Shown: positions 4,317 through 51,000 of the stretch, piece by piece
Layout of the letters: every line of letters starts with the position of its first letter
How positions within the stretch are numbered: position 1 is the stretch's first letter
NCBI GenBank assembly: GCA_963743885.1
Contig: CAVURJ010000001.1
Span: 12,949-76,948 of the forward strand
Reading direction: 5' to 3'
Source: Candidatus Moraniibacteriota bacterium
GTDB lineage: Bacteria; Patescibacteriota; Minisyncoccia; Moranbacterales; UBA1568
DNA: 64,000 nt
Position numbers and translations under genes: made by a program
Notes under the pieces: generated by a model
What the model saw: the letters and a program-made list of their open reading frames with translations, nothing else
What the model was told of the DNA's origin: nothing
Database searches by the model: none

Positions 4317-5774
4317 TTAAATGATTTTCTTTTTATTAGCTGCTGGATCAACAAGGTGATTTCGTAGCGGATTGCCGTTCTTGTACGCACGAATCCGAAT
4401 CTCATCGGCCTGAAGGCGCTCCTCAAGCGCCTCTATCTCCCGATCCTCACGACGCACCTGCCGAAGCAGCCAAAAGAACGCCGCCCCAAACATACCAGAA
4501 ATGAATAGGACACCGCCGAAAAGATAAAGAAAGAGATTGCTCGGCGAACCGGCAGCCATCCGGAGCATATCCCAGCGCGTATCAACCGACAATCCTGCCT
4601 GCCGGAGCTCAGCGCACCGATTAAAGTACGGCTCCAGCCGTTCGAGCGCCCCGAATCCGCTGTTCGTCCCCGAAGCAGCAGCCATGAAAGATGCCTCAGC
4701 GCTCTCGCAACGCTTCGCTGAGAACTGGAGGAACCCTTCCCGGAAACGCTGCCCGTATACGCCCTCCTCCGGAGCGATCCGCATCTCATCGGCCGCCGTA
4801 CGGAGGATATCGATCGGAAGCGCGAAGGCGAAGTTGTCGCCCGACACCTGGTCAAACCCACTCGTCTGAAAAGTAATGATACCCACGGCCTCGCCAGCAT
4901 CATTCAAGAGCGGCCCACCGCTCGAGCCCTCTGATACCTTGGCATCAGTCTGGAATATCCGGAAGCTCCGATCGGATGACTGCTTGATAGCACTCACGAC
5001 ACCCTCAGTAAAAGTCGCCTCGGCCGGATCATTCCGGTTAGCCTCGGCGGTCGCCGGAAACCCGAAGATAAAGGCTTTCCTTCCGACTGACAAGTCTTCC
5101 GAGCGGCCCAAGCGGAGCGCCGGCAAACCAGTCTCGGCAATCCGTATGATGGCGATATCGCGCTCATCATCGAGGAAACGATCATTCACGGAAATGATTT
5201 CAGCCGGATACCCCTCAGCCATCAGATCCGCGATGCGGGTCTTGTCCGATCCGGGCCGGAGCACCGCCACCTCATGATGGAGATCGAAAGTGCTGTGATC
5301 GATGACGTAGCGGAGCACCTCGCGCGTGAAGCGCTCACCCTCCTCAGAATCAATGAAGGACCCGAGCTCCTCCTCGGAAAGGAAGAGCGCATTCTCGAAC
5401 ATCGCCGAAAGCGCGCTCTCGGATGCGAGGGACTGTTTGACTGTCTCCTGCGAAACGACATGGGCGTTGGTAGCGATAGAGCCGTCAGAGTGGATGACGA
5501 AGCCGCTCCCTGAAAGATACTCATCGACCTCTACTTCGGTATACTCATCCGGAATAACCGCCACGAAGCGCTTCCGAATATCCACCTTGACCGCCGGGAC
5601 CTTCGCCGTACCGGACACATGTTCGGCGATACGGACCACTGACGGCTTGGCCAAATCAGCGAGCGCCTCTTCTGGTAGTGCAGACGGCTGCGCCAAAACC
5701 GGAAATATCGGAAAGCCGGAGAGGACCATCACGAAAACCGCCAGGATGCTGTTTGTCTTTATCTGGGGTGCCAT
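4317..5774 (-). CDS. secreted trypsin-like serine protease (S1 family, HtrA-like catalytic domain) with C-terminal TM helix and coiled-coil tail
   Basis: 485 aa. Signal peptide. Catalytic-triad context HVV(H)...DIAII(D)...GSSGGPLL(S). No clear PDZ domain. The C-terminal hydrophobic segment is followed by a charged helix. Confidence 0.7.
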   Translation of the reverse strand: MAPQIKTNSILAVFVMVLSGFPIFPVLAQPSALPEEALADLAKPSVVRIAEHVSGTAKVPAVKVDIRKRFVAVIPDEYTEVEVDEYLSGSGFVIHSDGSIATNAHVVSQETVKQSLASESALSAMFENALFLSEEELGSFIDSEEGERFTREVLRYVIDHSTFDLHHEVAVLRPGSDKTRIADLMAEGYPAEIISVNDRFLDDERDIAIIRIAETGLPALRLGRSEDLSVGRKAFIFGFPATAEANRNDPAEATFTEGVVSAIKQSSDRSFRIFQTDAKVSEGSSGGPLLNDAGEAVGIITFQTSGFDQVSGDNFAFALPIDILRTAADEMRIAPEEGVYGQRFREGFLQFSAKRCESAEASFMAAASGTNSGFGALERLEPYFNRCAELRQAGLSVDTRWDMLRMAAGSPSNLFLYLFGGVLFISGMFGAAFFWLLRQVRREDREIEALEERLQADEIRIRAYKNGNPLRNHLVDPAANKKKII

Positions 5775-14292: not shown

Positions 14293-15642
14293 CTATCTCA
14301 CCTGAAGCGTCCCGCGGTACATGCCCATCGAACAACTGAAGGGTATCTTGCCAGCGCGAGTCGGCGTGAACTCGATGATGTTCTCTCCGGGTTTGAGACG
14401 GCGCTCAATGCCGAGCTCAGGGATGACAAATGACGACGCGCAACTATATGAATCCTCCGAATTGATGATGAGGCGCACCGGTACGCCGGCCGTGAGCTCG
14501 GGCAACGTGCTCGGGTGATAGCCGTCCGCATCCTGCGTCATGCGGATGACCTGGGCATCACCAGATGTGGTAGGATCCGTCGCCGCGGCAGGACTCTGGT
14601 CTCCACTCCATCCGAAGAGGTGCCAAGCGTTCCCAATATTCCAAAGGCCAAACGCGATAAGGACGACCGCGATGATCGCGAAGAAGACCCGGCGCATCCC
14701 GCCTTGGATTGCTGTGCCCAAACCACCGAACGCGAGCAGCCCTGGCATCGTACCGAGCGCGAAGACCGCCATGATAATCGCGCCAGCGAAAGTATCACCG
14801 AGTGTAATGACGGAAAGCTGCACTGCCTGTGTGAAACCGCACGGAAGAAAGAACGTGAGAGCGCCGGAAAGGAGGGCGCCGCGATGCGAATACCCGGCTC
14901 CGTCGTGGCGGCCTGCGCCAAGCATCCGGCTGATGGCTTTCGGCAGAGTGAATGAAAAATGGCTCAAACGAGGGAAAATATCCGAGAGCTGAAGACCGAT
15001 GAGCAGCATGACAAGACCGACCAAAAGGGTCAAAAAAGCCGTCGCGGAAAGTGAAAGCTGGAGCCGTTCGCCGAAGAGCCCAAGGAGAGCACCAAAGAAC
15101 GCGAAGCCGCCGACGCGTCCGGTATTGAACCAGAGTTGTGGGATGAATTTGTCACGGAAAGAGCGCTCGGGATGAAGCTCGCTGTAGCGGGCTGCGACGC
15201 CGAGCACGAGGCCGCCGACAATCGCCGCACAGGTAGAGATACCAGCTGCGAGACCAATCAGGAACACGAGGCCGAGTCGGGAGAGATCGAGCGTCTCGGA
15301 TCCGAAGGAAGCCGAGAGCCAGCCGAGATGGCCGAGCGCGAGGTATCCGACGAAGACAAGCGCGATCGCGAAGAGTGCCGCGACATATGCTTCGAGCTCG
15401 CGCGAGACGAGCGGTAGATGCCCTGCAGCATCTGCCACTGTATAGCCGGCCGTCTCAATGACAGCCCGCACCGCCTCTTCATCGGGCGCAGTACCGTCCG
15501 AGGCGATGATGATCGTCCCAGTCCTGTGGTTGGCTTCGGCCCGAGTGACATGCGCGATCTTTGCGAGCTCGCCTTCAAGCGTCAGTTCGCACGAGCGGCA
15601 GTGCATCCCAGAAACGAATATCTTTTGTTGTGGCATAAGCAA
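14293..15642 (-). CDS. fusion protein: N-terminal heavy-metal-associated (HMA) domain, TauE/SafE-type permease, C-terminal cupredoxin-like domain
   Basis: 449 aa. GMHCRSC (GMxCxxC) at the N-terminus. A 7-8 TM core. The C-terminal ...SYSCASSFVIPELGIERRLKPGENIIEFTPTRAGKIPFSCSMGMYRGTLQV matches the Cupredoxin_1 pattern. Confidence 0.65.
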   Translation of the reverse strand: MLMPQQKIFVSGMHCRSCELTLEGELAKIAHVTRAEANHRTGTIIIASDGTAPDEEAVRAVIETAGYTVADAAGHLPLVSRELEAYVAALFAIALVFVGYLALGHLGWLSASFGSETLDLSRLGLVFLIGLAAGISTCAAIVGGLVLGVAARYSELHPERSFRDKFIPQLWFNTGRVGGFAFFGALLGLFGERLQLSLSATAFLTLLVGLVMLLIGLQLSDIFPRLSHFSFTLPKAISRMLGAGRHDGAGYSHRGALLSGALTFFLPCGFTQAVQLSVITLGDTFAGAIIMAVFALGTMPGLLAFGGLGTAIQGGMRRVFFAIIAVVLIAFGLWNIGNAWHLFGWSGDQSPAAATDPTTSGDAQVIRMTQDADGYHPSTLPELTAGVPVRLIINSEDSYSCASSFVIPELGIERRLKPGENIIEFTPTRAGKIPFSCSMGMYRGTLQVR

Positions 15643-40722: not shown

Positions 40723-41487
40723 ATGCGCTTTAAAAAACTGGCCATCATTCTCATTCTTCTCATAGCGATCACGGGCGGCGCGATGATGTTCTCTCTGTAT
40801 GAGAAAAGAACCGCTTCCCCGCAACCGCTCATACCTCTCTCATCCCTCCCGGAAGCCCAGCCATTTTCTCCTTCACCAAATCCCCTTCCGACCGAATCAC
40901 CCAAAGAGCTCCCGGAAAAATTTTTGCTTCAAGTCCCCTTCACTCCACAAGCCCCTACCGGAAACTGGGATGAGATGCATGGAGAGGCCTGCGAAGAGAC
41001 CAGCGCCCTCATGGCTGCTGCGTACTTTGCCGGCGATACCAGAGCGGTTTTGCCTGCAGCGGAAGTAGAGAAGCAATTGGCCGATCTGACCGCCTGGCAA
41101 GAAAAACGCTTTGGGTATTCACTGGATTCTACCGCCGAAGAAACAGCAGAGATGATTCGCTCCGTCTATCATCTCAAGACTGAGCTGGTCGCTGATTTCA
41201 CGGAACAAGATATCAAAAAAGCACTGGCCGCGGGCCACGTCATCATCGTCCCTCTAAGCGGACGCGAGCTCGGCAATCCCTACTTCCGCCAGCCCGGACC
41301 AATCTATCATATGATCGTCATCCGCGGGTATACCGAGGCAGAGCTCATCACCAACGACCCCGGGACAAAGCGCGGCGAAAACTATCCGTATTCCTTTGCC
41401 ACGATTAAGAACGCCGGCGCTGACTGGAATCATACTACTGGTACGATCGACGATGGAAAATCCATTATGATCGTCGTCTCAAAGTAA
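40723..41487 (+). CDS. membrane-anchored C39-like (papain-fold) cysteine peptidase domain protein, paralog 1
   Basis: 254 aa. N-terminal TM helix. Peptidase_C39_2-like pattern: VPFTPQAP..W.......CEETSALMAAAYF (Cys), ...YHMIVIRGY (His), ...NDPG. Confidence 0.6.
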   Translation: MRFKKLAIILILLIAITGGAMMFSLYEKRTASPQPLIPLSSLPEAQPFSPSPNPLPTESPKELPEKFLLQVPFTPQAPTGNWDEMHGEACEETSALMAAAYFAGDTRAVLPAAEVEKQLADLTAWQEKRFGYSLDSTAEETAEMIRSVYHLKTELVADFTEQDIKKALAAGHVIIVPLSGRELGNPYFRQPGPIYHMIVIRGYTEAELITNDPGTKRGENYPYSFATIKNAGADWNHTTGTIDDGKSIMIVVSK

Positions 41488-41497
41488 TCATCATCCT

Positions 41498-42166
41498 ATG
41501 TTTTTTCTCACGCTTCCCAGACTCCTCTTCCTCCTTCTGACACCGGTCCTCGTAACAGGAGCCGTCGTTTACGAGGTTGTGGAGAGTAAGCCCCGCCCAG
41601 CCACTTTTTCTCTTGCCGTCCCCTTCACGACCCAAGCTCCAGACGGTGTGTGGGAGAATAATGCAAACTGTGAAGAAGCGAGTGCACTCATGGTAAGCGC
41701 TTTTCTCGCGGGCGATACCAGAGAGGATATCCCTACATCTGAAGCCAAGCGCGCTCTTGACGCTCTGGTCCGCTGGGAGCGCTCCAATCTCGGTTACCAT
41801 GTCGACACCGGTATCGGAGAGATAGGCGCGATGATAGAGGCAAATTTTGATCTTACGACCGAAGAGCTCGTCGACTTCACGGAAGATGATTTGAAACAAG
41901 AACTCCTCGAAAATCATGTCATCATTCTTCCAGTCAATCTGAAGCTTCTCGGAAGTGCAAAGTACCAAGGAGCAGGCAATGATTACCACGTCGTCGTCAT
42001 CCGAGGGTATACAGAGACCGACTTTGTAGTGAATGACCCCGGGACCACCAGCGGCAAAAATAATCTCTACTCATTTGCCACGATCCAAAGCGCTGCTGCT
42101 GATTGGGACAATGCAAACCGAAAACTGAACTCGGACAGGAAAGCAGTTCTTGTCGTTTCAAAGTAG
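41498..42166 (+). CDS. C39-like cysteine peptidase domain protein, paralog 2
   Basis: 222 aa. Same architecture, ~45% identical to the upstream gene (CEEASALMVSAFLAGDTR...YHVVVIRGYTE...NDPGT). Confidence 0.6.
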   Translation: MFFLTLPRLLFLLLTPVLVTGAVVYEVVESKPRPATFSLAVPFTTQAPDGVWENNANCEEASALMVSAFLAGDTREDIPTSEAKRALDALVRWERSNLGYHVDTGIGEIGAMIEANFDLTTEELVDFTEDDLKQELLENHVIILPVNLKLLGSAKYQGAGNDYHVVVIRGYTETDFVVNDPGTTSGKNNLYSFATIQSAAADWDNANRKLNSDRKAVLVVSK

Positions 42167-42232
42167 CTCTGCTCTCATCGTCCTTGCCCCACTTCTTGGA
42201 TACTCGCCCACCCTACTCGATACAAACAAAAA

Positions 42233-42257
42233 CAGCACCTTCTTGGGTGCTGTTTTT
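42233..42257 (+). terminator. rho-independent terminator after the peptidase pair
   Basis: cagcacc-ttcttg-ggtgctg followed by ttttt. Confidence 0.7.
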
Positions 42258-42344
42258 ACTTACTACTCCACATGTTGGACGAAGTAAGAACCTATATATT
42301 GAGAGAATCGAGCAATAAAATCCAGGCCTAAGACTTTTATTCTA

Positions 42345-42611
42345 CTAATTTTCGGGAATTGAGATAACACCAGCTTTAAAGCCAAAAAAACTAAACATCT
42401 CCTCATTAAGACTCTCCACGCCCTTATCATCGTTTTGTTTAACCCGCTCCCTTTCCAATAGCTGCGTAGTGAACCCTTTCTTTGAAAAAAGAAAACCACC
42501 TTCAATCAAGTTTTTCGTATCAAAAGGCATCTGTCCATCAGGCCCAGTGTTTCTTACAACATAGGGACTTTCCAGGTACCTACTATCTTGCTCTCTGTTT
42601 ATAGTATTCAT
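42345..42611 (-). CDS. hypothetical 88-aa protein, translationally coupled to the SDH-family protease (island gene)
   Basis: Its start lies 3 nt after the protease stop. AT-rich codon usage unlike the host genes. Confidence 0.4.
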   Translation of the reverse strand: MNTINREQDSRYLESPYVVRNTGPDGQMPFDTKNLIEGGFLFSKKGFTTQLLERERVKQNDDKGVESLNEEMFSFFGFKAGVISIPEN

Positions 42612-42613
42612 AG

Positions 42614-43750
42614 CTATATAGTTGGTGTTGAAACAGGTGCTGGAAGATCAACTTTCCGCCAACCCGTATTTAATACAACTACATTACCATTAAACTGCAT
42701 ATCCAGTTTTCTTTGGATTAGTATTCTATTTTTTGCATAAAACTCCGATGAAACTCTCAGGCTTTCCAAGAAAGCATGTTTTAATTCTATCTCAATTGTA
42801 GGAAGAACCACGTTGAGTTGCTCTTGCATATAGTTCTGTAGCAACTGAAAAACTAATTGCTGGTTATTAGAAATCTGCGGTGGAATATTGATAGGAGGAG
42901 GCGACTGAAGAAGCGGAGCGGCATTTGGATCCCTCAGGTACTCAGCCAATGGATCAAATGGCATACGAGTCTTGATTTCTGATTCAAAATCCATGTGGAT
43001 ATCCCACATCATTTTTTCCAATTCTATGTCTGGCGTTATTACATTCAACCCTATTTCTTCTGCTTCTTTCCTTCCAAGAGCATGCCCATGGCTGAAAAAA
43101 CTCTTATTGAGCTTAGTTGCAATTGCATGAGCTTGTGATTTTTTTTCAGGGTCTATCATGTGCATTTGGAGCATTTTTTCCCCAATAGCTATCGATAATG
43201 AGGAAGAGCGTTTTGCAAAGCCAAGAGCTGTTGGCTCTACAACTTCACATAATTTCTCAAATGCACTTTTAATGTACTCCTGTTCCGTAATACCGGCCTC
43301 TTCTCGAACAAAACTTAAAAATGAAGCTACATCTTCATATCCAAACTCTTGAGTTGTACCATCTTTTTTTCTTGTTTTTATTTGTGGGTCTATTGGTCCT
43401 AAACAACCATACGGACCCATGACAATTTCATCGGCGCCAAGAGCTAAAAGAGTGGCCGCACTAAATGCTGAATGAGGTACCAAAACATTTACCTTTTTGA
43501 AGGATGAGCGGAGAAGTGAGATTACTCTCCAAGAAGTCAGGGGGTCTCCGCCGGTTGATTCTATAAGTAAGTCAATCGCAGTCTCCGGTGTCTTTGTTAT
43601 AGCCTGTATCTGATCAATAAACTCATCAATCACATCGCCTGCCATAGCCGCAGCAGCACCTCGTCTTTGAGAGGTAACATAAGTAACCAAAGGATTACCC
43701 CTCTTTGCTTCAATCTTCTTGTATAATTCAGCTCTTTCTGCAATTGCCAT
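42614..43750 (-). CDS. ClpP/SppA-fold serine protease of the SDH (serine dehydrogenase proteinase, S49-like) family
   Basis: 378 aa. ...LVTYVTSQRRGAAAAMAGDVIDEFIDQI...IESTGGDPLTSWRVISLLRSSFKKVNVLVPHSAFSAATLLALGADEIVMGPYGCLGPIDPQ matches the family core. The C-terminal ~150 aa are unassigned. Confidence 0.6.
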   Translation of the reverse strand: MAIAERAELYKKIEAKRGNPLVTYVTSQRRGAAAAMAGDVIDEFIDQIQAITKTPETAIDLLIESTGGDPLTSWRVISLLRSSFKKVNVLVPHSAFSAATLLALGADEIVMGPYGCLGPIDPQIKTRKKDGTTQEFGYEDVASFLSFVREEAGITEQEYIKSAFEKLCEVVEPTALGFAKRSSSLSIAIGEKMLQMHMIDPEKKSQAHAIATKLNKSFFSHGHALGRKEAEEIGLNVITPDIELEKMMWDIHMDFESEIKTRMPFDPLAEYLRDPNAAPLLQSPPPINIPPQISNNQQLVFQLLQNYMQEQLNVVLPTIEIELKHAFLESLRVSSEFYAKNRILIQRKLDMQFNGNVVVLNTGWRKVDLPAPVSTPTI

Positions 43751-43811
43751 GTAGATTCTTTAGTAATTGAATTATACCGAAATGTAGTGTAAAGTAAAGT
43801 GAAGTGAAAAT

Positions 43812-43991
43812 ATGGAAATGAAAGATGCTTTTTACACTACAGAAGAACTGGCAACTAAGCTAAAGCTGAATGTCATGACGATTTACCGCTATATTAAAGC
43901 CGGAAAGTTAAAAGCCCATAAAATCGGCAAAGAGTACCGAATTGACCGGATCGAATTCGAAAGATTCATAAAAAGCACGGAAACGAAATGA
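43812..43991 (+). CDS. excisionase/MerR-like HTH DNA-binding protein (59 aa)
   Basis: MEMKDAFYTTEELATKLKLNVMTIYRYIKAGKLKAHKIGKEYRIDRIEFERFIKS. Its stop overlaps the next start (ATGA). Confidence 0.6.
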   Translation: MEMKDAFYTTEELATKLKLNVMTIYRYIKAGKLKAHKIGKEYRIDRIEFERFIKSTETK

Positions 43992-45673
43992 GCAAGAAAA
44001 CTCAGACTCAAAAAATTCTACCATGGGAAAACGGCGAGTTAGAAACTCTTCTTCAGGGATTAATTGCTCATGGGTCGGAAGTAGCAAAAGTAGATTTCAA
44101 AACAGAAATCGCAATCAACACTCCGGAACAAAAGGCTGACCTACTCAAAGACATCATTGCTATTGCTAACACCTATGACGATAACTATGACGATCATGGG
44201 TTTATTATTTATGGAGTGAAAGCAAAAACTATAACCGGCATTTCTCAAACAGAAGTTGACGTTGATAAATTTCAAAACAACATAGAACAGCTTCTCAAAA
44301 CATATATCTCCCCAATGCCACAGATATATGTAATCGGGTTTGAAACCGCCTCTGGAGAAAAATGGGGGGCTATTGTGATACCTCCACGCAATAGCAAGCC
44401 ACACATGTTTTTCAAGGAATTATCTTGCCAAGATAAATCACGTATGCGAAGGAAAGGCGAATGGTTCGTTCGCCGAGGATCAACAACCGACCCGGGCCTT
44501 CCAGAAGATCTCGCTATTATCACTCAAAAACAGATAGAGCTAAGCCTCGAGCCATTACGAGACAGTATCCGAAGTCTTCAGATTCGTATTGCCAAAACAG
44601 AAGAACAGTACAACAGCGCCTTATTCAAACTGGTTGAGCGCGCACTTTCAGCTCTTCCAGAAAGTACTCAAAGCAGGTCGGAAGAGAAAAAAGAGGAAAT
44701 TGGCTCTGATATTGAAATAGCTCTTGGAATGGATCTTCCCGCTCGCCTCAAGCAAAAACTAAAAACTCCGACGGATAAAATAGCTGAGGACCTGATAACG
44801 GAAGCGAAAAAGATTCGTGAAATGATTGATGGTCCATCTTCTGGTATCCCCTGGACACCACAACCCAACAACCCCGATGAAAACAAACGAATTATTAACG
44901 AACTTGAAGAAAAAACCCGGGCCTTCCAAATATCAGTAGCAACAATCCTTCTAAACGATCATAAGGGTATTTATACCGATGCTCTTTTGCGTGCGATAAA
45001 AATACTCGCAAGAATGGTAGATGTGCCCAATGGCATTGCCTTTAATAGGATTGGTACGGCACTAAGATACTATCCGCTCGGATTGATTATATATACGATC
45101 TTTATTTTTGGAGTTGCTGCAAATAAGCCAGAAATACTAAGAAAGGTACTTGATCTTCCGGTAAAAGGCCGTCGAGCAGGCACAAGTGCGCACATAACAG
45201 ATATTTTCTTTTTTTGGTATGAGGCAAAGGCTCTGTTCAATGACGCATTTGCTCAAAGGTGGTGCGAACCAATAGGCCAAAGGATACGGCAAGTAATGAC
45301 TGACCATGTCAGTGATTTGCTTACTGAACTTACCGAACCAGAGTATTTTTTCAGAGGCGAATTTGTTCTCGCATTAACGCGCATTGATAAACTAACCGGG
45401 GACGGCGAAAATATTGATCGCAGGGTGCCCTTGCCAGGTCTCTACCTCTACCTTAATGAAGTACACGATATCGTAACTGATTTTCTTATCGAACATCCCA
45501 GCTGGTTTGAAAAATTCTATACTCAACCAATAAGCGAAATTCTTGATACATTTGACTGCAATGCAGATAAAATGGTCTCTCCGGGTTGCTTTGGTTCAGG
45601 GCTTCATAGCCTCAAAACCTCAAAAATATACCAGGACTCGTTACAAAAAAAGACTGTGGCGGCGCCAAAATAG
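43988..45673 (+). CDS. AlbA_2/Schlafen-like N-terminal domain protein with a ~400-aa uncharacterised C-terminal region
   Basis: 561 aa. N-terminal ...GSEVAKVDFKTEIAINTPEQKADLLKDIIAIANTYDD...GFIIYGVK fits the AlbA_2 (Schlafen-group) pattern E..EfK....ia.aN..GG.i.iGv. AT-rich. Confidence 0.55.
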   Translation: MSKKTQTQKILPWENGELETLLQGLIAHGSEVAKVDFKTEIAINTPEQKADLLKDIIAIANTYDDNYDDHGFIIYGVKAKTITGISQTEVDVDKFQNNIEQLLKTYISPMPQIYVIGFETASGEKWGAIVIPPRNSKPHMFFKELSCQDKSRMRRKGEWFVRRGSTTDPGLPEDLAIITQKQIELSLEPLRDSIRSLQIRIAKTEEQYNSALFKLVERALSALPESTQSRSEEKKEEIGSDIEIALGMDLPARLKQKLKTPTDKIAEDLITEAKKIREMIDGPSSGIPWTPQPNNPDENKRIINELEEKTRAFQISVATILLNDHKGIYTDALLRAIKILARMVDVPNGIAFNRIGTALRYYPLGLIIYTIFIFGVAANKPEILRKVLDLPVKGRRAGTSAHITDIFFFWYEAKALFNDAFAQRWCEPIGQRIRQVMTDHVSDLLTELTEPEYFFRGEFVLALTRIDKLTGDGENIDRRVPLPGLYLYLNEVHDIVTDFLIEHPSWFEKFYTQPISEILDTFDCNADKMVSPGCFGSGLHSLKTSKIYQDSLQKKTVAAPK

Positions 45674-45883
45674 CGTTAGACACAAATAATCGAGCTCTGC
45701 GAGACAAAAATAGAGACAGTAGGGTAAGTTTAGTGTGGTTTTCAAAAAGCAGAAAAGGGGCCAGGTACTTTTTTTTAGGCTTCCCTTACAATTGTACTCC
45801 CTCCAACAAAAAAACACACCCTTACGGATGTGTCTTTTCTTTATGCTCCGGCGATAGGATTCGAACCTATGACCAAGTGATTA

Positions 45884-46425
45884 CATGTGATCCTCTTGTT
45901 TCCAAGACGCATGGACTATATCATCTCCATCGCACATTGCATTAGGAGTGAGGCGCTTCGACTTTTTGCAAAGCCTACTCTCTTGCGAGATAGTCTCTGA
46001 ACCTTCCCTCTCGGGCTTGGCTGCTGATTACCATAATCGCGCTGAACGATCTTAGGCTTCCAGCAATTCACCTCATTTATCACTTTCGGATTTCTCCGAA
46101 AGGCTGCGTAGTTTTTCATGCTCCTCCCTGTGGCAATTCGCGCATATCAGGGTGCATTTTTTCAGTTCTTTCTCAATCCGCTCCCAACTTCTTGTCAGGC
46201 CATCTTGAGATATACCGAAATCTTTCCTTCCATCAATATGATGGAATTCAAGAGCACCGAAACAGCGATTATACCCACAGCGGGAGCATTTTCCGCCTTT
46301 GTATTCGATAGCGCGCAGTCGCATCATCTTACGACGCTTTGCAACGGCCCGCTTCAAATACTCTCGACGGTCAGCATAGGTTCTTGTGTCTGGCATACAT
46401 AAATAAGTATACCACACATGTTTCC
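45884..46425 (-). other. group I (IC3-like) self-splicing intron within tRNA-Asn
   Basis: The 5' exon ends in U and the intron ends in G (omega-G, ...CACAUG|UAA...). The 3' core carries the P7/J6-7 hallmark sequences UUCAGAGACUA and GAUAUAGUCC, a P8-like hairpin CUCUCGCAAGAGAG, and a P9 hairpin GUCUUGG-AAA-CAAGAGGA. The ORF sits near the 5' end, in the P1/P2 region. Confidence 0.75.
46073..46417 (-). CDS. HNH homing endonuclease encoded inside the group I intron
   Basis: 114 aa. CSRCGY...FHHIDG...CANCH, an HNH motif with two CxxC pairs. GTG start is 6 nt after the 5' splice site; an internal Met (MPDTR) is the alternative. Confidence 0.7.
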   Translation of the reverse strand: MWYTYLCMPDTRTYADRREYLKRAVAKRRKMMRLRAIEYKGGKCSRCGYNRCFGALEFHHIDGRKDFGISQDGLTRSWERIEKELKKCTLICANCHREEHEKLRSLSEKSESDK

Positions 46426-46618
46426 ACAGTCACCTGCTCTACCACTGAGCTACGCCGGAATATTCTGTTGTCAAATCGCCCTTTTGGACGATGGCGTCAT
46501 TGTACGCGAAAAGAAAGAAAAAGGCAAGAGAAAGCCCCTGCTTCGCACGGAAGACAGGGGACTTGAGAGATCGGGAAACGTTACCCGAAGGCGAGAACGA
46601 CTTGACCGTGAACAGGTA

Positions 46619-46939
46619 TCAAATCGGCAGCGGCCGTTGACCGAAATTCATCGGGAAAAACGGCGCCACTTCCGGCTGATAAGCATCGTCGCCGAGGGCA
46701 GACTTGAGGACGAACGACGGCTCATCGGATACGGCGCCGGCCATGCACGCGAGCGTCTTTTCGGCTTCAACCGTATTGAGCTTCTGAAGCGCGTATCCGG
46801 TATGGACGATCACATAGTCACCGACCCTGATACCGTCAACCAATGCGAGTGAAACCTCTTTCTGCACGCCATCCATGTCGACGATGGCGCCACCGCCGGC
46901 CGTCAGACTGGCTACTTTCACAGGTATTGCGAGACACAT
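46619..46939 (-). CDS. hypC: [NiFe] hydrogenase maturation factor HypC/HybG family
   Basis: 106 aa. Hallmark N-terminus MCLAIP, then ...VDGIRVGDYVIVHTGYA. Confidence 0.8.
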   Translation of the reverse strand: MCLAIPVKVASLTAGGGAIVDMDGVQKEVSLALVDGIRVGDYVIVHTGYALQKLNTVEAEKTLACMAGAVSDEPSFVLKSALGDDAYQPEVAPFFPMNFGQRPLPI

Positions 46940-47033
46940 GATGTGCTCCTTTTCGTAAGAACTACAGGGAAAATACCCTTCTGAAGCTAGTATATCAAAT
47001 CCCCTGTTTTTCCGATATACTATGAAAAGTCCT

Positions 47034-47059
47034 GGATTCCCGCCTTCGCGGGAATGACA
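47034..47059. repeat. REP/MITE-like hairpin element ggattcccg-ccttc-gcgggaatgaca
   Basis: Palindrome followed by ATGACA. Related copies lie at 47566-47592 (reverse orientation), 47603-47629 and 54204-54230. Confidence 0.6.
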
Positions 47060-47077
47060 GAAGAATAAAACTAACGA

Positions 47078-47095
47078 ATCCGCCAGCTGGCGGAT
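47078..47095. repeat. 18-bp perfect palindrome ATCCGCCAGCTGGCGGAT (second copy)
   Basis: Identical to the core of the bidirectional terminator at 13441-13471. Confidence 0.7.
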
Positions 47096-47115
47096 AAAAA
47101 GCTACAAGCTACCGT

Positions 47116-47496
47116 ATGATTATCCACATCTTTGGCAACCCGGACCTCCCCGAGGATGCTCTCCCGGTCCGGCTCATGCCACGCCTCGAAGCCGCCTTCC
47201 CAGATATCCGCTTCCGCCTGACCGACCCCAATGAGCTCGATCTGCCGAAGCCCGGCGAAGATTTCCTCGCCATCGATACGGTCGATGGACTGAAAGACGT
47301 CCGTGAGATCGGCGTCGATGAGATCGCGGCACAGAAAGCCCGCTCCACCGCCCATGACTACGACTTCGCTTCCTGGCTCCTCCTCGCACAGAAGCTCCGT
47401 CCCGGGCTCCATGCCCACATCATCGGCATCCCCATGGAGACCGATGAAGCATCAGCTCTTGCCGAGCTCATCCCGCTGATCAAACAGCTCGACTAA
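47116..47496 (+). CDS. hydrogenase maturation endopeptidase (HycI/HybD/HoxW family)
   Basis: 126 aa. Family pattern IFGNPDLPED (GN...DD-like metal-ligand region)...LAIDTVDG...THDYDFASWL...IIGIPME, with spacing consistent with the Asp/Asp/His Ni-binding triad. Confidence 0.55.
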   Translation: MIIHIFGNPDLPEDALPVRLMPRLEAAFPDIRFRLTDPNELDLPKPGEDFLAIDTVDGLKDVREIGVDEIAAQKARSTAHDYDFASWLLLAQKLRPGLHAHIIGIPMETDEASALAELIPLIKQLD

Positions 47497-47503
47497 AAGA
47501 CAA

Positions 47504-47535
47504 AGCCGCCCTCCGATGTGTTGGGCGGTTTTTTC
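47504..47535 (+). terminator. rho-independent terminator after the maturation protease gene
   Basis: agccgccc-11 nt-gggcggtt followed by tttttt. Confidence 0.7.
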
Positions 47536-47565
47536 ATGTGCTTTGAATTACGAAACCCTTTTTTC

Positions 47566-47629
47566 TGTCATTCCGGCCTCCGAGCCGGAATCTAGAAGAA
47601 CTGGATCCCGGGTCAAGCCCGGGATGACA
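47566..47629. repeat. two adjacent REP/MITE-like hairpin elements, one in reverse and one in forward orientation
   Basis: tgtcattccggc-ctccga-gccggaatc (47566-47592), then ggatcccggg-tcaa-gcccgggatgaca (47603-47629). Confidence 0.6.
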
Positions 47630-47645
47630 AAGATAAACTAGGTTA

Positions 47646-48947
47646 CTATATCTCTCTCAGCTTGAGCTTGAGGAAATGCGAAGCGCAGCTCATGCACGGA
47701 TCATAAGCACGGATGATCTTCTCGCACTCGAGCGAAAGTGCATCATGATCCATCGAAAGATTCTCCTGGATGAACTTGCCGAGGTCGGCCTCGATTGTGA
47801 TCTGGTTCTGACCGGTCGGAACAATCACCTCGCCGCGAAGCACTACGCCCTTCTCATCGGTCTCATACTTGTGATAGAGCGTACCGCGCGGCGCTTCGAC
47901 GACGCCGACGCAGACCGTCGCCTTGGGCACGACATGCTGGAGCGGCTCCTTGACGAATGTCCACTTCGAAAGAATGTCCAACGCCTCATCCACGCTATGA
48001 AGCATCGCGATCGCCTGGGCGAGATTGTTGTGATAGACATCGTGCGATGGGAACTTCTTGAGCGCCTCTGCGGCATCACGACGGGTGTCTGGATGAAGCG
48101 TCTCTTGTGAGAGATTGATGCGCGCGAGCGCGCCCACGCGATACGCCTGACCATCAAACTTGTAACCGGACGCTTCCGAATACGGGATAACGACACGCTC
48201 GAGATGGTCGCGATAACCGCTCTCATCAGCCACTTTTCCGTTCATATCCCAGAGCTCGCCTTCGAAATAGGAAAACGGATTGGCCTTGAGCGCGATGTAG
48301 TTGGTCTCGCGCACCAGCGAGAATGGGCAGTTCATGAAGATATCGATGGCACGAAGCACCGCCGGACGGATTTCCTTGAGCTCTTCGATCGAGTGTTTCA
48401 TCTCCTCCGCCTCCGGCACGTGCGCGAAACCGCCCGGCATAAGAAACGGCGCATGCACGCTCCGGCCGCCAGCCAAGATCGCTAGATGATTGCCAGCTCC
48501 CTTGATCTCAAAGGCGTCATGAAGTACCTGGTGCTCGGCCGGGTCGCTCTCATCAAACTCAAGGAGCGAATCCTTGCCGTACATATCCGGCATCACGAAC
48601 ATATACAGATGGAGCGCGTGGTCGCGGAGGATGAGACCATGGTACGTGAGGGCACGGAGCGCCTTGGTCTGTTCGGTCGGTACGAGGCCGAAACCTTTCT
48701 CGATCGCCTCGATGCTTGCCATGAGATGCGCATTGGAACAGGTGCCGCAGATACGGGAAAGAAGCTGCGGGATGGCCATGATTGGCTTGCCGACCATCGC
48801 CTGCGTGAAGAAACGCTTGTACTCATTGATAGCGAACTGCACGGATTCTACCTTGCCGTCGCTTATGAGCACGTCGAGACCGGCCGAGCCTTCGATCTTG
48901 GTGATCTCCTTGATGCTGAACCTGCTGTGATCAGATACCTGGTGCAT
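47646..48947 (-). CDS. [NiFe] hydrogenase large subunit (cytoplasmic group 3-like)
   Basis: 433 aa. N-terminal Ni-binding motif RICGTCSNAH. C-terminal motif DPCMSCASH. Confidence 0.9.
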   Translation of the reverse strand: MHQVSDHSRFSIKEITKIEGSAGLDVLISDGKVESVQFAINEYKRFFTQAMVGKPIMAIPQLLSRICGTCSNAHLMASIEAIEKGFGLVPTEQTKALRALTYHGLILRDHALHLYMFVMPDMYGKDSLLEFDESDPAEHQVLHDAFEIKGAGNHLAILAGGRSVHAPFLMPGGFAHVPEAEEMKHSIEELKEIRPAVLRAIDIFMNCPFSLVRETNYIALKANPFSYFEGELWDMNGKVADESGYRDHLERVVIPYSEASGYKFDGQAYRVGALARINLSQETLHPDTRRDAAEALKKFPSHDVYHNNLAQAIAMLHSVDEALDILSKWTFVKEPLQHVVPKATVCVGVVEAPRGTLYHKYETDEKGVVLRGEVIVPTGQNQITIEADLGKFIQENLSMDHDALSLECEKIIRAYDPCMSCASHFLKLKLREI

Positions 48948-48992
48948 ATTACCAAAAAGTTACAAGAGACAAGTTACAAGAAACAAAAAATG

Positions 48993-49493
48993 CTACTCGG
49001 CTTTCTCTAAAGCCGGGACGATACCGAATTCCACGAGCGCGTCGTTCACGACCTTCACGAACGCGGCCTCCTGCATCGGGCAGCCATTCACTGCGGCATC
49101 CACCGTGATGATCTCATCGAGCCTCTTCGCTTTCTTCCCATAGTGGAACTTCTCCAGAAGGAAACTAATCTTCTTCTCCACTTCCTCGGGGAATTCGTTC
49201 CGCTGCGTGGAGAAATTGCCAGCCACGGCGCACGAGCCGATCGCGACCACCTTCTTCGCTAGGCGGCGGATCTCAAGCAATTTTTCTTCCTGATCCGGCG
49301 CGGCGATCGCCCCCTCGACGAACGCAACATCCATCTCATCCATCACATTCTTTGACTTGAGCACCTTGGCGTAGCGGATATCGAGAAGCGGCAGCCACTC
49401 CTGATAGTGGTCATTCAAGATCTCGGTAAACATGACCGTACTATCCTCGCAGCACGAGAACGAGAACCAGCCGATACGAAGCTTCTTGCCCAT
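48993..49493 (-). CDS. [NiFe] hydrogenase small subunit (NuoB-like FeS subunit)
   Basis: About 166 aa from MGKKLRIGWFSFSCCEDS...GSCAVAG. Confidence 0.85.
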   Translation of the reverse strand: MGKKLRIGWFSFSCCEDSTVMFTEILNDHYQEWLPLLDIRYAKVLKSKNVMDEMDVAFVEGAIAAPDQEEKLLEIRRLAKKVVAIGSCAVAGNFSTQRNEFPEEVEKKISFLLEKFHYGKKAKRLDEIITVDAAVNGCPMQEAAFVKVVNDALVEFGIVPALEKAE

Positions 49494-49525
49494 AGATTCA
49501 AAAAAGAATTTATTATGCCTCCATT

Positions 49526-49559
49526 GTAACACAAAACCCCGCCTATCAGACGGGGTTTG
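49526..49559 (-). terminator. terminator of rpoD (minus strand)
   Basis: ccccg-cctatcaga-cgggg, flanked so that the minus-strand reading is followed by uuuguguu. Confidence 0.6.

Positions 49560-49605: not shown

Positions 49606-51000
<1,395 letters not shown>

Follow-up and report, generated by a model that had tools for sequence, protein, structure and literature searches.

A Schlafen-type gene and an uncharacterised protease pair in a low-GC island beside a split tRNA-Asn gene of Candidatus Moraniibacteriota

Introduction

When four genes lie side by side on a short AT-rich island, in two divergent operons, do they constitute a single antiviral system, or are separable units juxtaposed? 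The question is raised by an island (42170..45843, no strand assigned) in a 64,000-nt stretch of the genome of a Candidatus Moraniibacteriota bacterium (Patescibacteriota; GenBank assembly GCA_963743885.1, contig CAVURJ010000001.1, positions 12,949 to 76,948), hereafter the window, in whose own numbering all coordinates are given. The minus strand of the island encodes a 378-amino-acid (aa) SDH-type serine protease, putatively of the ClpP fold (42614..43750), and an 88-aa partner (42345..42611), the open reading frame (ORF) of which begins 2 nt past the protease stop codon (TAG-CT-ATG). The plus strand encodes a 59-aa DNA-binding protein of the HTH_17/excisionase family (43812..43991; HTH, helix-turn-helix), which leads what is described below as a cargo operon and overlaps, by an ATGA, the gene for a 561-aa protein (43988..45673).

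A preliminary description of this DNA had presented the four genes as a candidate uncharacterised defence module. Its gene layout (378, 88, 59 and 561 aa, divergent, with the ATGA overlap) agreed exactly with the ORF list, and the Pfam calls for SDH_protease, HTH_17 and SLFN_AlbA_2 all exceeded their gathering cut-offs. Comparison with related loci leads elsewhere. The 561-aa protein is assigned here, by homology, to the prokaryotic Schlafen (pSlfn) defence family, and the island is probably the recombinase-less remnant of a Patescibacteria serine-recombinase element that carries the pSlfn gene together with a separate protease-peptide module.

Results

The two operons in related loci

Genomic neighbourhoods were compared for 34 pSlfn loci, comprising relatives of the full-length family from genome and metagenome collections plus the closest relative (L129/L130), and for 16 protease loci, comprising the window and 15 other distinct loci. 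A phmmer comparison of every ORF in the first 32 pSlfn loci detected nothing related to the protease, to its 88-aa partner or to the HTH protein beside the Schlafen gene; the last two, L129 and L130, have the HTH_17 gene and no protease. Equally, no Schlafen gene was present in any of the 15 other protease loci. Because pSlfn loci occur without the protease and protease loci without a Schlafen gene, the four-gene combination of the window is best regarded as a local juxtaposition. The proposal that the four genes make up one module was not borne out (0 of 34 pSlfn loci with a protease or 88-aa relative; 0 of 15 other protease loci with a Schlafen gene), and the neighbourhood comparison that it had called for found the combination not to be conserved across these 34 + 15 loci.

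The closest relatives of each operon indicate what the two have in common. In L129/L130, the pSlfn protein is 80% and the HTH_17 protein 86% identical to those of the window, the ATGA overlap is kept, and a serine recombinase lies 3 kb downstream. In L131-L134, a protease 80% identical to that of the window, with its partner, is divergent from a longer operon made up, in order, of two unknown genes, a 60-aa HTH_17 protein and a type III restriction-modification (R-M) operon, with a large serine recombinase in L133/L134; the HTH_17 proteins leading the type III R-M operons of L131 and L133 are 61-65% identical to that of the window. A third arrangement was found in L040, where HTH_17, a methylase, MvaI, the protease and the partner follow one another in a single orientation. 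Large serine recombinases were present in the related loci L040, L041, L126, L129 and L133. Because of the layouts of L131-L134, L129/L130 and L040, HTH_17 is taken to lead an exchangeable cargo slot that holds type II R-M, type III R-M or Schlafen genes and, as judged from the closest relatives, both modules belong to one Patescibacteria serine-recombinase element backbone.

The 561-aa protein and its nuclease domain

Members of the pSlfn family are defined by a PF04326 domain longer than 100 aa and a catalytic Ex4(E/D)xK motif, and are usually fused to a second, putatively infection-sensing domain (PMC13056530, PMC13462974). The 561-aa protein matched SLFN_AlbA_2 (PF04326) over residues 31-168 (E 7.9e-12; 46.2 bits against a cut-off of 25.3), a match of more than 100 aa that confirms the AlbA_2/Schlafen assignment suggested earlier for its N-terminus. 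The nuclease domain spans aa 17-180 (44036..44527, plus strand), and its motif, E31-VAKV-D36-F-K38 (44078-44101), conforms to Ex4(E/D)xK, each of the three residues being at least 90% conserved among 27 homologs. A family profile aligned over the whole of this domain, aa 17-180, with the CRISPR-associated Schlafen CbCash (9ylu_A; E 1.2e-14), bringing E31/D36/K38 into register with the CbCash catalytic triad E17/D22/K24, and a fold search returned the AlbA_2/Schlafen/SAMD9 fold.

In an AlphaFold2 (AF2) model of the complete protein (predicted local distance difference test score, pLDDT, 80), the N-terminal Schlafen/AlbA_2 nuclease is followed by a long helix and a disordered linker, and then by an all-alpha C-terminal domain of about 300 aa with pLDDT mostly above 85, which provides the fusion to a second domain that is usual for the family. 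About 110 full-length homologs were found, with identities of 46-80%. No ATPase or HTH domain was detected in the protein by Pfam. A hydrophobic segment, aa 359-377, was considered as a possible transmembrane helix; in the model it is a buried 16-residue helix of the C-terminal bundle, predicted with high pLDDT, and is provisionally taken as core packing. On these grounds of homology, the protein is a pSlfn and the Schlafen part of the island adds a new member to a defence family that has already been described.

The papers on that family date to 2025-2026, and experimental anti-phage or tRNase activity has been reported for several of its members (PMC13056530, PMC13462974, PMC13552941). RorSlfn5 and EcoSlfn7 shield E. 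coli from phage, RorSlfn5 cutting tRNA anticodon arms (Perez Taboada et al., Nat Microbiol 2026, PMC13056530), and CbCash uses an E17/D22/K24-Mg2+ centre to cut tRNAs in the T-loop and the anticodon loop (PMC13462974).

Genomic setting of the pSlfn relatives

Relatives of the 561-aa protein are encoded among defence and mobility genes. The pSlfn gene directly follows type I R-M genes in three loci, L001, L008 and L014, and in the latter two its start codon overlaps the preceding stop codon. In L013 a type ISP R-M gene immediately precedes and overlaps it, and in L016 it comes after an EcoRI-type methylase. Ten loci have a large serine recombinase no more than about 4 kb away (L001, L003, L004, L005, L006, L008, L017, L020, L021 and L129). 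A defence neighbourhood is therefore found for the relatives; the window locus itself has no other known defence gene adjacent. The hosts include Paceibacteria, Parcubacteria and Saccharibacteria (Candidate Phyla Radiation, CPR), Sphingobacteriia, Burkholderiales and Acidobacteriota, and this wide range suggests horizontal transfer. A scan of IMG/VR viral contigs gave no match, so that the family was not detectably phage-borne in that collection. Considered together, homology and context make a defence role of the AlbA_2/Schlafen gene well supported.

In several loci, mostly on high-GC contigs of Acidobacteriota type, the Schlafen gene is split into two ORFs by frameshifts (L010 7977-9616, L025, L026, L027 and L031 7971-9616). 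These copies could reflect either pseudogenisation of a costly gene or assembly error.

The C-terminal domain

The C-terminal all-alpha domain (aa 255-557; 44750..45658, plus strand) has a relative in PDC-S65, a PADLOC entry that is itself a computational candidate only and on which no literature was found. Residues 252-486 matched positions 309-537 of the 592-position PDC-S65 profile (E 2.7e-11), and phmmer related the domain to P0305, a bona fide PDC-S65 protein, with E 6e-14. The two kinds of protein are also alike in length, about 560-590 aa, and in layout, an N-terminal effector preceding the C-terminal domain; they differ in the effector, PDC-S65 proteins having a SIR2 domain of NADase type and the window protein a predicted RNase of the Schlafen group. 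Full membership of PDC-S65 was accordingly rejected, since only the C-terminal part of the window protein is matched, whereas P0305 has SIR2_2 and scores E 5e-170. The preliminary description had recognised no named system in the island; for the 561-aa protein this no longer stands, the pSlfn family having been published and the C-terminal domain matching PDC-S65, while for the protease pair, which has no PADLOC match, it does.

The domain is rare: searched alone, it returned only 108 clusters among 1.84 billion representative proteins. N-terminal partners were tallied over the 57 longer members of this set (343 aa or more). Schlafen/AlbA_2 accounted for 40 of the 57, including the window protein's family; the effector-associated domain EAD8 was found in two, and SIR2 (P0305), a PNP_UDP_1 nucleosidase that also matches a PADLOC effector model, the NACHT N-terminal helical domain NNH6, Guanylate_cyc (a weak match) and DUF4780 in one each. 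Because a constant domain is joined in this way to interchangeable abortive-infection effectors and conflict-system adaptors, it is read as a putative sensor/regulatory domain, probably of infection. Fold searches gave no specific match in the PDB, all hits being helical repeats of a generic kind (NOT1 MIF4G and Munc13, for example).

The protease and its small partner

The protease matched Pfam SDH_protease (PF01972) with E 1.4e-19 (70.7 bits against a threshold of 31.3), in keeping with the earlier SDH assignment, but within residues 3-125 only and profile positions 34-160 of 286. Against the NCBIfam equivalog NF047768 it reached 81.3 bits, below the cut-off of 250. By sequence it is a divergent relative of the canonical SDH proteinases. 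Its best family match was phrog_11747 (function unknown; E 1e-39). In comparison with the SDH-family Clp-fold proteinases (PF01972, NF047768; ClpP, NfeD, SppA), it has an extra C-terminal region of 250 aa, composed of helices and a beta-meander, and proteases of its type are distinguished further by being borne on mobile elements and paired with a small ORF.

That small ORF lies directly downstream of the protease in 13 of the 16 loci and has a common proline-aromatic N-terminal core. In the window partner the conserved core is RYLESPYVVR (residues 11-20) and the C-terminus is variable. Homology between partners at this position was detected in L040 (43% identity over 74 aa) and L041 (60% identity over 45 aa). 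The core reads RYLESP[YH] in the closest protease relatives, RF[ED]TP[YH] and RAPY in more distant ones, and GPF in the most distant, which include one on a plasmid of Ca. Chlorohelix allophototropha; in both bacteria and archaea, the motif persists while protease identity ranges over 41-80%. The 88-aa protein had no match in Pfam, PADLOC, PHROG or NCBIfam, and the protease none in PADLOC. A literature search linking SDH protease or PF01972 to defence turned up passing mentions only, and one on ClpP-like proteases with antiphage or prophage terms nothing relevant. The pair can therefore still be called uncharacterised, as it was in the preliminary description.

The settings of the pair are varied. 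It occurs on serine-recombinase elements (L040, L041/L042, L126, L133/L134), directly after a PIN_12 gene in L126, beside a BamHI R-M system in L127 and beside a Cro/CI-type HTH gene in L125. In prophage L043 it follows an S24 repressor gene after a gap of 13 nt. In three viral contigs (L045 5551-7389, L046 and L047 5827-7794), an ORF of 108-115 aa in which the GPF motif recurs comes after the protease, and a PemK/MazF-type toxin gene (Pfam E 1.8e-8) is next, an order that resembles protease, antitoxin, toxin. In L044, from an archaeon, and in L128, no obvious mobile-element genes accompany it.

Two further loci are of practical or comparative interest. On the Ca. Chlorohelix allophototropha plasmid (L136; NZ_CP128401.1, 117239-122683), a full-length protease (41% identity) and a 74-aa partner (FTGPFRF) are followed by a 1326-aa AAA-domain protein; this bacterium is cultured and so offers a tractable source of the pair. 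L137 (NZ_CP081794.1), an E. coli 'plasmid' of 43.7 kb, is in fact the genome of a lambdoid phage and encodes a distant SDH-type serine protease (29% identity) at 4748-5743; the Q antiterminator and holin genes flank this gene, which is on the opposite strand. That position is the classic moron slot.

The HTH_17 protein and the divergent control region

The 59-aa protein matched Pfam HTH_17 with E 2.5e-15 and TIGR01764 ('excise') with 50.1 bits against a cut-off of 28.8, in agreement with its earlier description as an excisionase-type HTH. It also matched PADLOC mad1 (E 1.7e-12). Membership of the MADS system was rejected, the NCBIfam antiphage_MADS1 score being 30 against a cut-off of 80 and no methyltransferase or other MADS gene being present in the island; the mad1 resemblance is generic HTH_17 similarity.

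The two operons are separated by a 61-bp control region (43751..43811, no strand assigned) that contains the GTAAAG/GTGAAG repeats previously reported for it. A promoter-like site for the protease was found on the minus strand (-35 TTTACT, 43798-43793; -10 TATAAT, 43776-43771; 10 of 12 matches in a promoter scan, 16-nt spacer), and the GTAAAG repeats, read on the minus strand, form its -35 region. This promoter block is also conserved ahead of the protease in L131 and L133. On the plus strand, the repeat TGTAAAGTAAAGTGAAGTG (43789-43806) lies directly upstream of the HTH gene, and AAAGTAAAGT occurs once in the window against 0.01 copies expected.

L131 and L133 each contain two same-strand copies of a 17-nt motif, TGTAAAC[A/T]AAAGTAAAG (expected 0.01 and 0.00, respectively), at 5249-5265 and 7915-7931 in L131 and at 5374-5390 and 7956-7972 in L133. 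In both loci, one copy lies in the divergent region between the protease and a 422-aa gene and the other upstream of the HTH_17 gene, and the window has a single hybrid copy at 43789-43806. The motif may be the operator of HTH_17, and the arrangement of the window may have arisen by deletion: loss of the DNA between the paired direct copies of a backbone like that of L131 would yield it exactly.

Extent and borders of the island

The island is bordered on the left by a host gene for a C39-like peptidase and on the right by a tRNA-Asn gene, whose 3' end it abuts. Its GC content is 0.406 against a window mean of 0.536 (standard deviation 0.035, windows of the same size), making it the lowest-GC 3.7-kb stretch within the 64 kb, and GC at third codon positions is 0.32-0.45 in its genes and 0.54-0.77 in the flanking ones. 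The composition profile and the recovery of the tRNA by ARAGORN in intron mode thus agree with the earlier account of an AT-rich, foreign-composition island that differs from its flanks and ends at a tRNA 3' end (45844).

At the left border there is a perfect 12-bp inverted repeat with a 6-nt loop (42228..42257, no strand assigned; 100% complementary, flanked by A and T runs), a terminator-like hairpin that may act as a bidirectional terminator. Just to the left of the island lie two tandem paralogous C39-like peptidase genes (40723-42166; 254 and 222 aa; Pfam Peptidase_C39_2 E about 1e-9). The best related contig, L135, keeps both C39 genes and then continues into different genes, synteny stopping directly after the second. 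To the right of the tRNA (46619-49532), ORF translations resemble, by eye, HypC, a hydrogenase maturation protease and both [NiFe]-hydrogenase subunits, large and small; beyond these, at 49606-51000, lies an ORF resembling, again by eye, an RpoD-like lysine-rich sigma factor.

The split tRNA-Asn gene

The right border is formed by a tRNA-Asn(GUU) gene on the minus strand (45844..46459), identified with Rfam and the intron mode of ARAGORN. Its 5' exon (46459-46426) and 3' exon (45883-45844) are separated by a 542-nt group I intron (46425-45884), which splits the tRNA at anticodon-loop position 35/36 and matched RF00028 with 84.7 bits (45892-46127, minus strand). An HNH homing-endonuclease ORF (46417-46073, minus strand; HNH Pfam E 5.7e-4) lies inside the intron. 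The joined exons fold as a canonical tRNA-Asn(GTT), and the tRNA placed at the end of the island by the preliminary description is real. Default ARAGORN reported no tRNA in the window, missing this one because the intron splits the gene; intron-split tRNA genes of this class have been described in Patescibacteria, where standard tools miss them too (PMC13011429). A match to FtrB small RNA at 47547-47651 (E 0.48; 26.7 against 66 bits) was dismissed as chance.

One of the pSlfn loci, L008, also contains a group I intron (14651-15203; 65.5 bits) with a close homolog of the window HNH protein (E 2e-38). It is labelled as a Burkholderiales metagenome-assembled genome, yet its GC is only 0.33-0.38 and its features are of Patescibacteria type; the contig may be mis-binned.

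Discussion

A probable remnant element with two separable modules

The neighbourhood comparisons point to two separable modules with one divergent control region between them. The first, HTH_17 plus pSlfn, would effectively be a single-protein antiviral system: a predicted Schlafen/AlbA_2 Mg-dependent RNase (E31/D36/K38) joined to a rare helical C-terminal domain that would hold the nuclease off until an infection cue is sensed. By analogy with RorSlfn5 and CbCash, the activated nuclease would cut tRNA loops, halt translation and limit phage yield. The HTH_17 protein would lead the cargo operon; a role in transcriptional regulation is probable and one as excisionase possible.

The second module, the protease with its translationally coupled small protein, appears to stand on its own as a unit of two genes; bacteria and archaea carry it in prophages, on plasmids and in integrative elements. 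As a tentative guess, the proline-aromatic motif of the small protein may dock in the protease as substrate or inhibitor; with equally low confidence, the pair might provide an exclusion or addiction-type accessory function for the mobile element.

Several points weigh against this account. 'Remnant of an integrative element' is suggested by composition and by comparison with related loci, and tblastn with serine recombinases found none, nor any integrase, anywhere in the 64-kb window; neither the ORF list nor Pfam gave an integrase-like ORF in the island, as had been noted from the start. A repeat search at the left border found no att-like direct copy of the 3' end of the tRNA; very short cores suffice for serine recombinases, so that the missing repeats are weak evidence. 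When an empty site was sought through relatives of the neighbouring C39 peptidase, the only related flank to emerge (L135) was not a true one. The number of loci compared is modest (34 for pSlfn and 16 for the protease, many on short contigs), and HTH_17 is paired with pSlfn only in the closest relative, L129/L130, other members having different upstream genes. The sensor role of the C-terminal domain is suggested by domain shuffling, and its fold matches nothing specific. A phenotype was obtained with only two of the seven pSlfn genes assayed (PMC13056530). Finally, guilt by association of the protease pair with defence genes is confounded, those genes being cargo of the same elements.

Alternative explanations

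A single integrated defence system, in which the protease pair activates or regulates the Schlafen nuclease, or is itself activated or regulated by it, would fit the 61-bp control region that the two operons have in common, with its conserved motif, and the presence of protease modules and HTH_17-led cargo operons on the same backbones (L040, L131-L134); protease-activated effectors are also known from other defence systems. However, the protease and partner are missing from every one of the 34 pSlfn loci, even the 80%-identical L129/L130, and pSlfn from all 15 other protease loci, where the neighbouring cargo is type II R-M, type III R-M, PIN_12, MazF or nothing. Since each module is retained without the other, this explanation is largely refuted and must be considered very improbable. 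The constancy of the protease pair while cargo varies on serine-recombinase elements (L040, L041, L126, L131, L133 and the window) could instead mean that the pair is a regulatory module of the backbone, an anti-repressor or induction switch like ImmA/ImmR of ICEBs1, with HTH_17 as the excisionase and only the Schlafen gene as cargo. The S24 repressor gene before the pair in L043, the Cro/CI-type HTH beside it in L125, the overlap of the protease promoter with a motif that also precedes the excisionase-family gene, and the TIGR01764 score of the HTH are all in keeping with such a switch. It is harder to reconcile with the pair's occurrence where no recombinase or phage genes are near (L044, L128 and, beside the 1326-aa AAA protein, L136), with its position before a MazF toxin gene in viral contigs, with its intact state in a window whose element has lost the recombinase, or with a small partner that has no DNA-binding domain. 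We regard a backbone switch as possible but doubtful.

The Schlafen gene has an alternative of its own, namely that its product is a DNA-binding or regulatory protein for element maintenance and not an immune nuclease. Homologs are annotated at source as 'ATP-binding protein' or 'Putative DNA-binding domain', DNA binding is known for the SAMD9 AlbA_2 domain of solved structure (7ksp), and in the published survey about 30% of pSlfn genes were not near known defence genes and five of the seven assayed gave no phenotype (PMC13056530). Against this, the strongly conserved E-x4-D-x-K triad aligns with the proven triad of CbCash, the protein has no ATPase or HTH domain by Pfam, its relatives are operonic behind R-M genes, and its C-terminal domain is elsewhere fused to the classic abortive-infection effectors SIR2 and PNP; a maintenance role is accordingly judged improbable. 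A more ambitious proposal concerns both modules: the protease and small protein would form a new two-component exclusion, addiction or induction switch, wired to the element's defence cargo through a 17-nt operator bound by HTH_17, and the C-terminal domain would be a new sensor fold. Retention of the partner motif over a wide range of protease identities is consistent with this; as a whole, the proposal is speculative and rather unlikely to hold. The preferred explanation remains a recombinase-less element remnant with a pSlfn defence gene and a separate protease-peptide module.

Relation to known systems

The window protein resembles the studied pSlfn proteins RorSlfn5 and EcoSlfn7 (PMC13056530) in its PF04326 domain of more than 100 aa, its Ex4(E/D)xK motif, the union of nuclease and putative sensor in one polypeptide, and the location of family members among R-M and mobile-element genes. 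It differs in that its C-terminal domain belongs to no Pfam family and is not the Ig-like, DUF262 or HisKinase partner of those studied; moreover, the hosts of its family are mainly metagenome-only Patescibacteria, most of which would have escaped the survey of RefSeq complete genomes. Among solved structures, CbCash (PDB 9ylu, 9ylv and 9ylx; PMC13462974) is nearest in sequence to the nuclease domain; it is a proven Mg-dependent tRNA T-loop and anticodon-loop endonuclease with an identical E/D/K triad. CbCash is a protein of 297 aa with a cA4-sensing Csx15 domain that acts downstream of type III CRISPR, whereas the window protein has no Csx15 or CARF domain, no CRISPR neighbour and an unrelated helical C-terminal domain.

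For the protease pair, the nearest parallel in arrangement is ImmR/ImmA of ICEBs1, in which ImmA is a metalloprotease and ImmR an HTH repressor. The likeness lies in a protease gene at the edge of the element, divergent from an excisionase-family gene that leads the rest; no homology was detected, and the 88-aa partner is without a recognisable DNA-binding domain.

Significance

Neighbourhood comparison splits what appeared to be a four-gene system into an element backbone and exchangeable cargo. The cargo places an intact Schlafen-type defence gene, predicted to encode a tRNase, in the Patescibacteria, ultra-small episymbionts whose antiviral repertoire is poorly known, and the common C-terminal domain ties its pSlfn family to the PADLOC candidate PDC-S65. 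The exchange of Schlafen, SIR2, nucleosidase, EAD8 and NNH6 partners on that domain provides a concrete sensor hypothesis. Novelty may thus lie in the shared C-terminal domain and in the protease pair. The latter is unstudied and widespread on mobile elements and, if it does serve in defence, in addiction or as an induction switch, would represent a new class of system.

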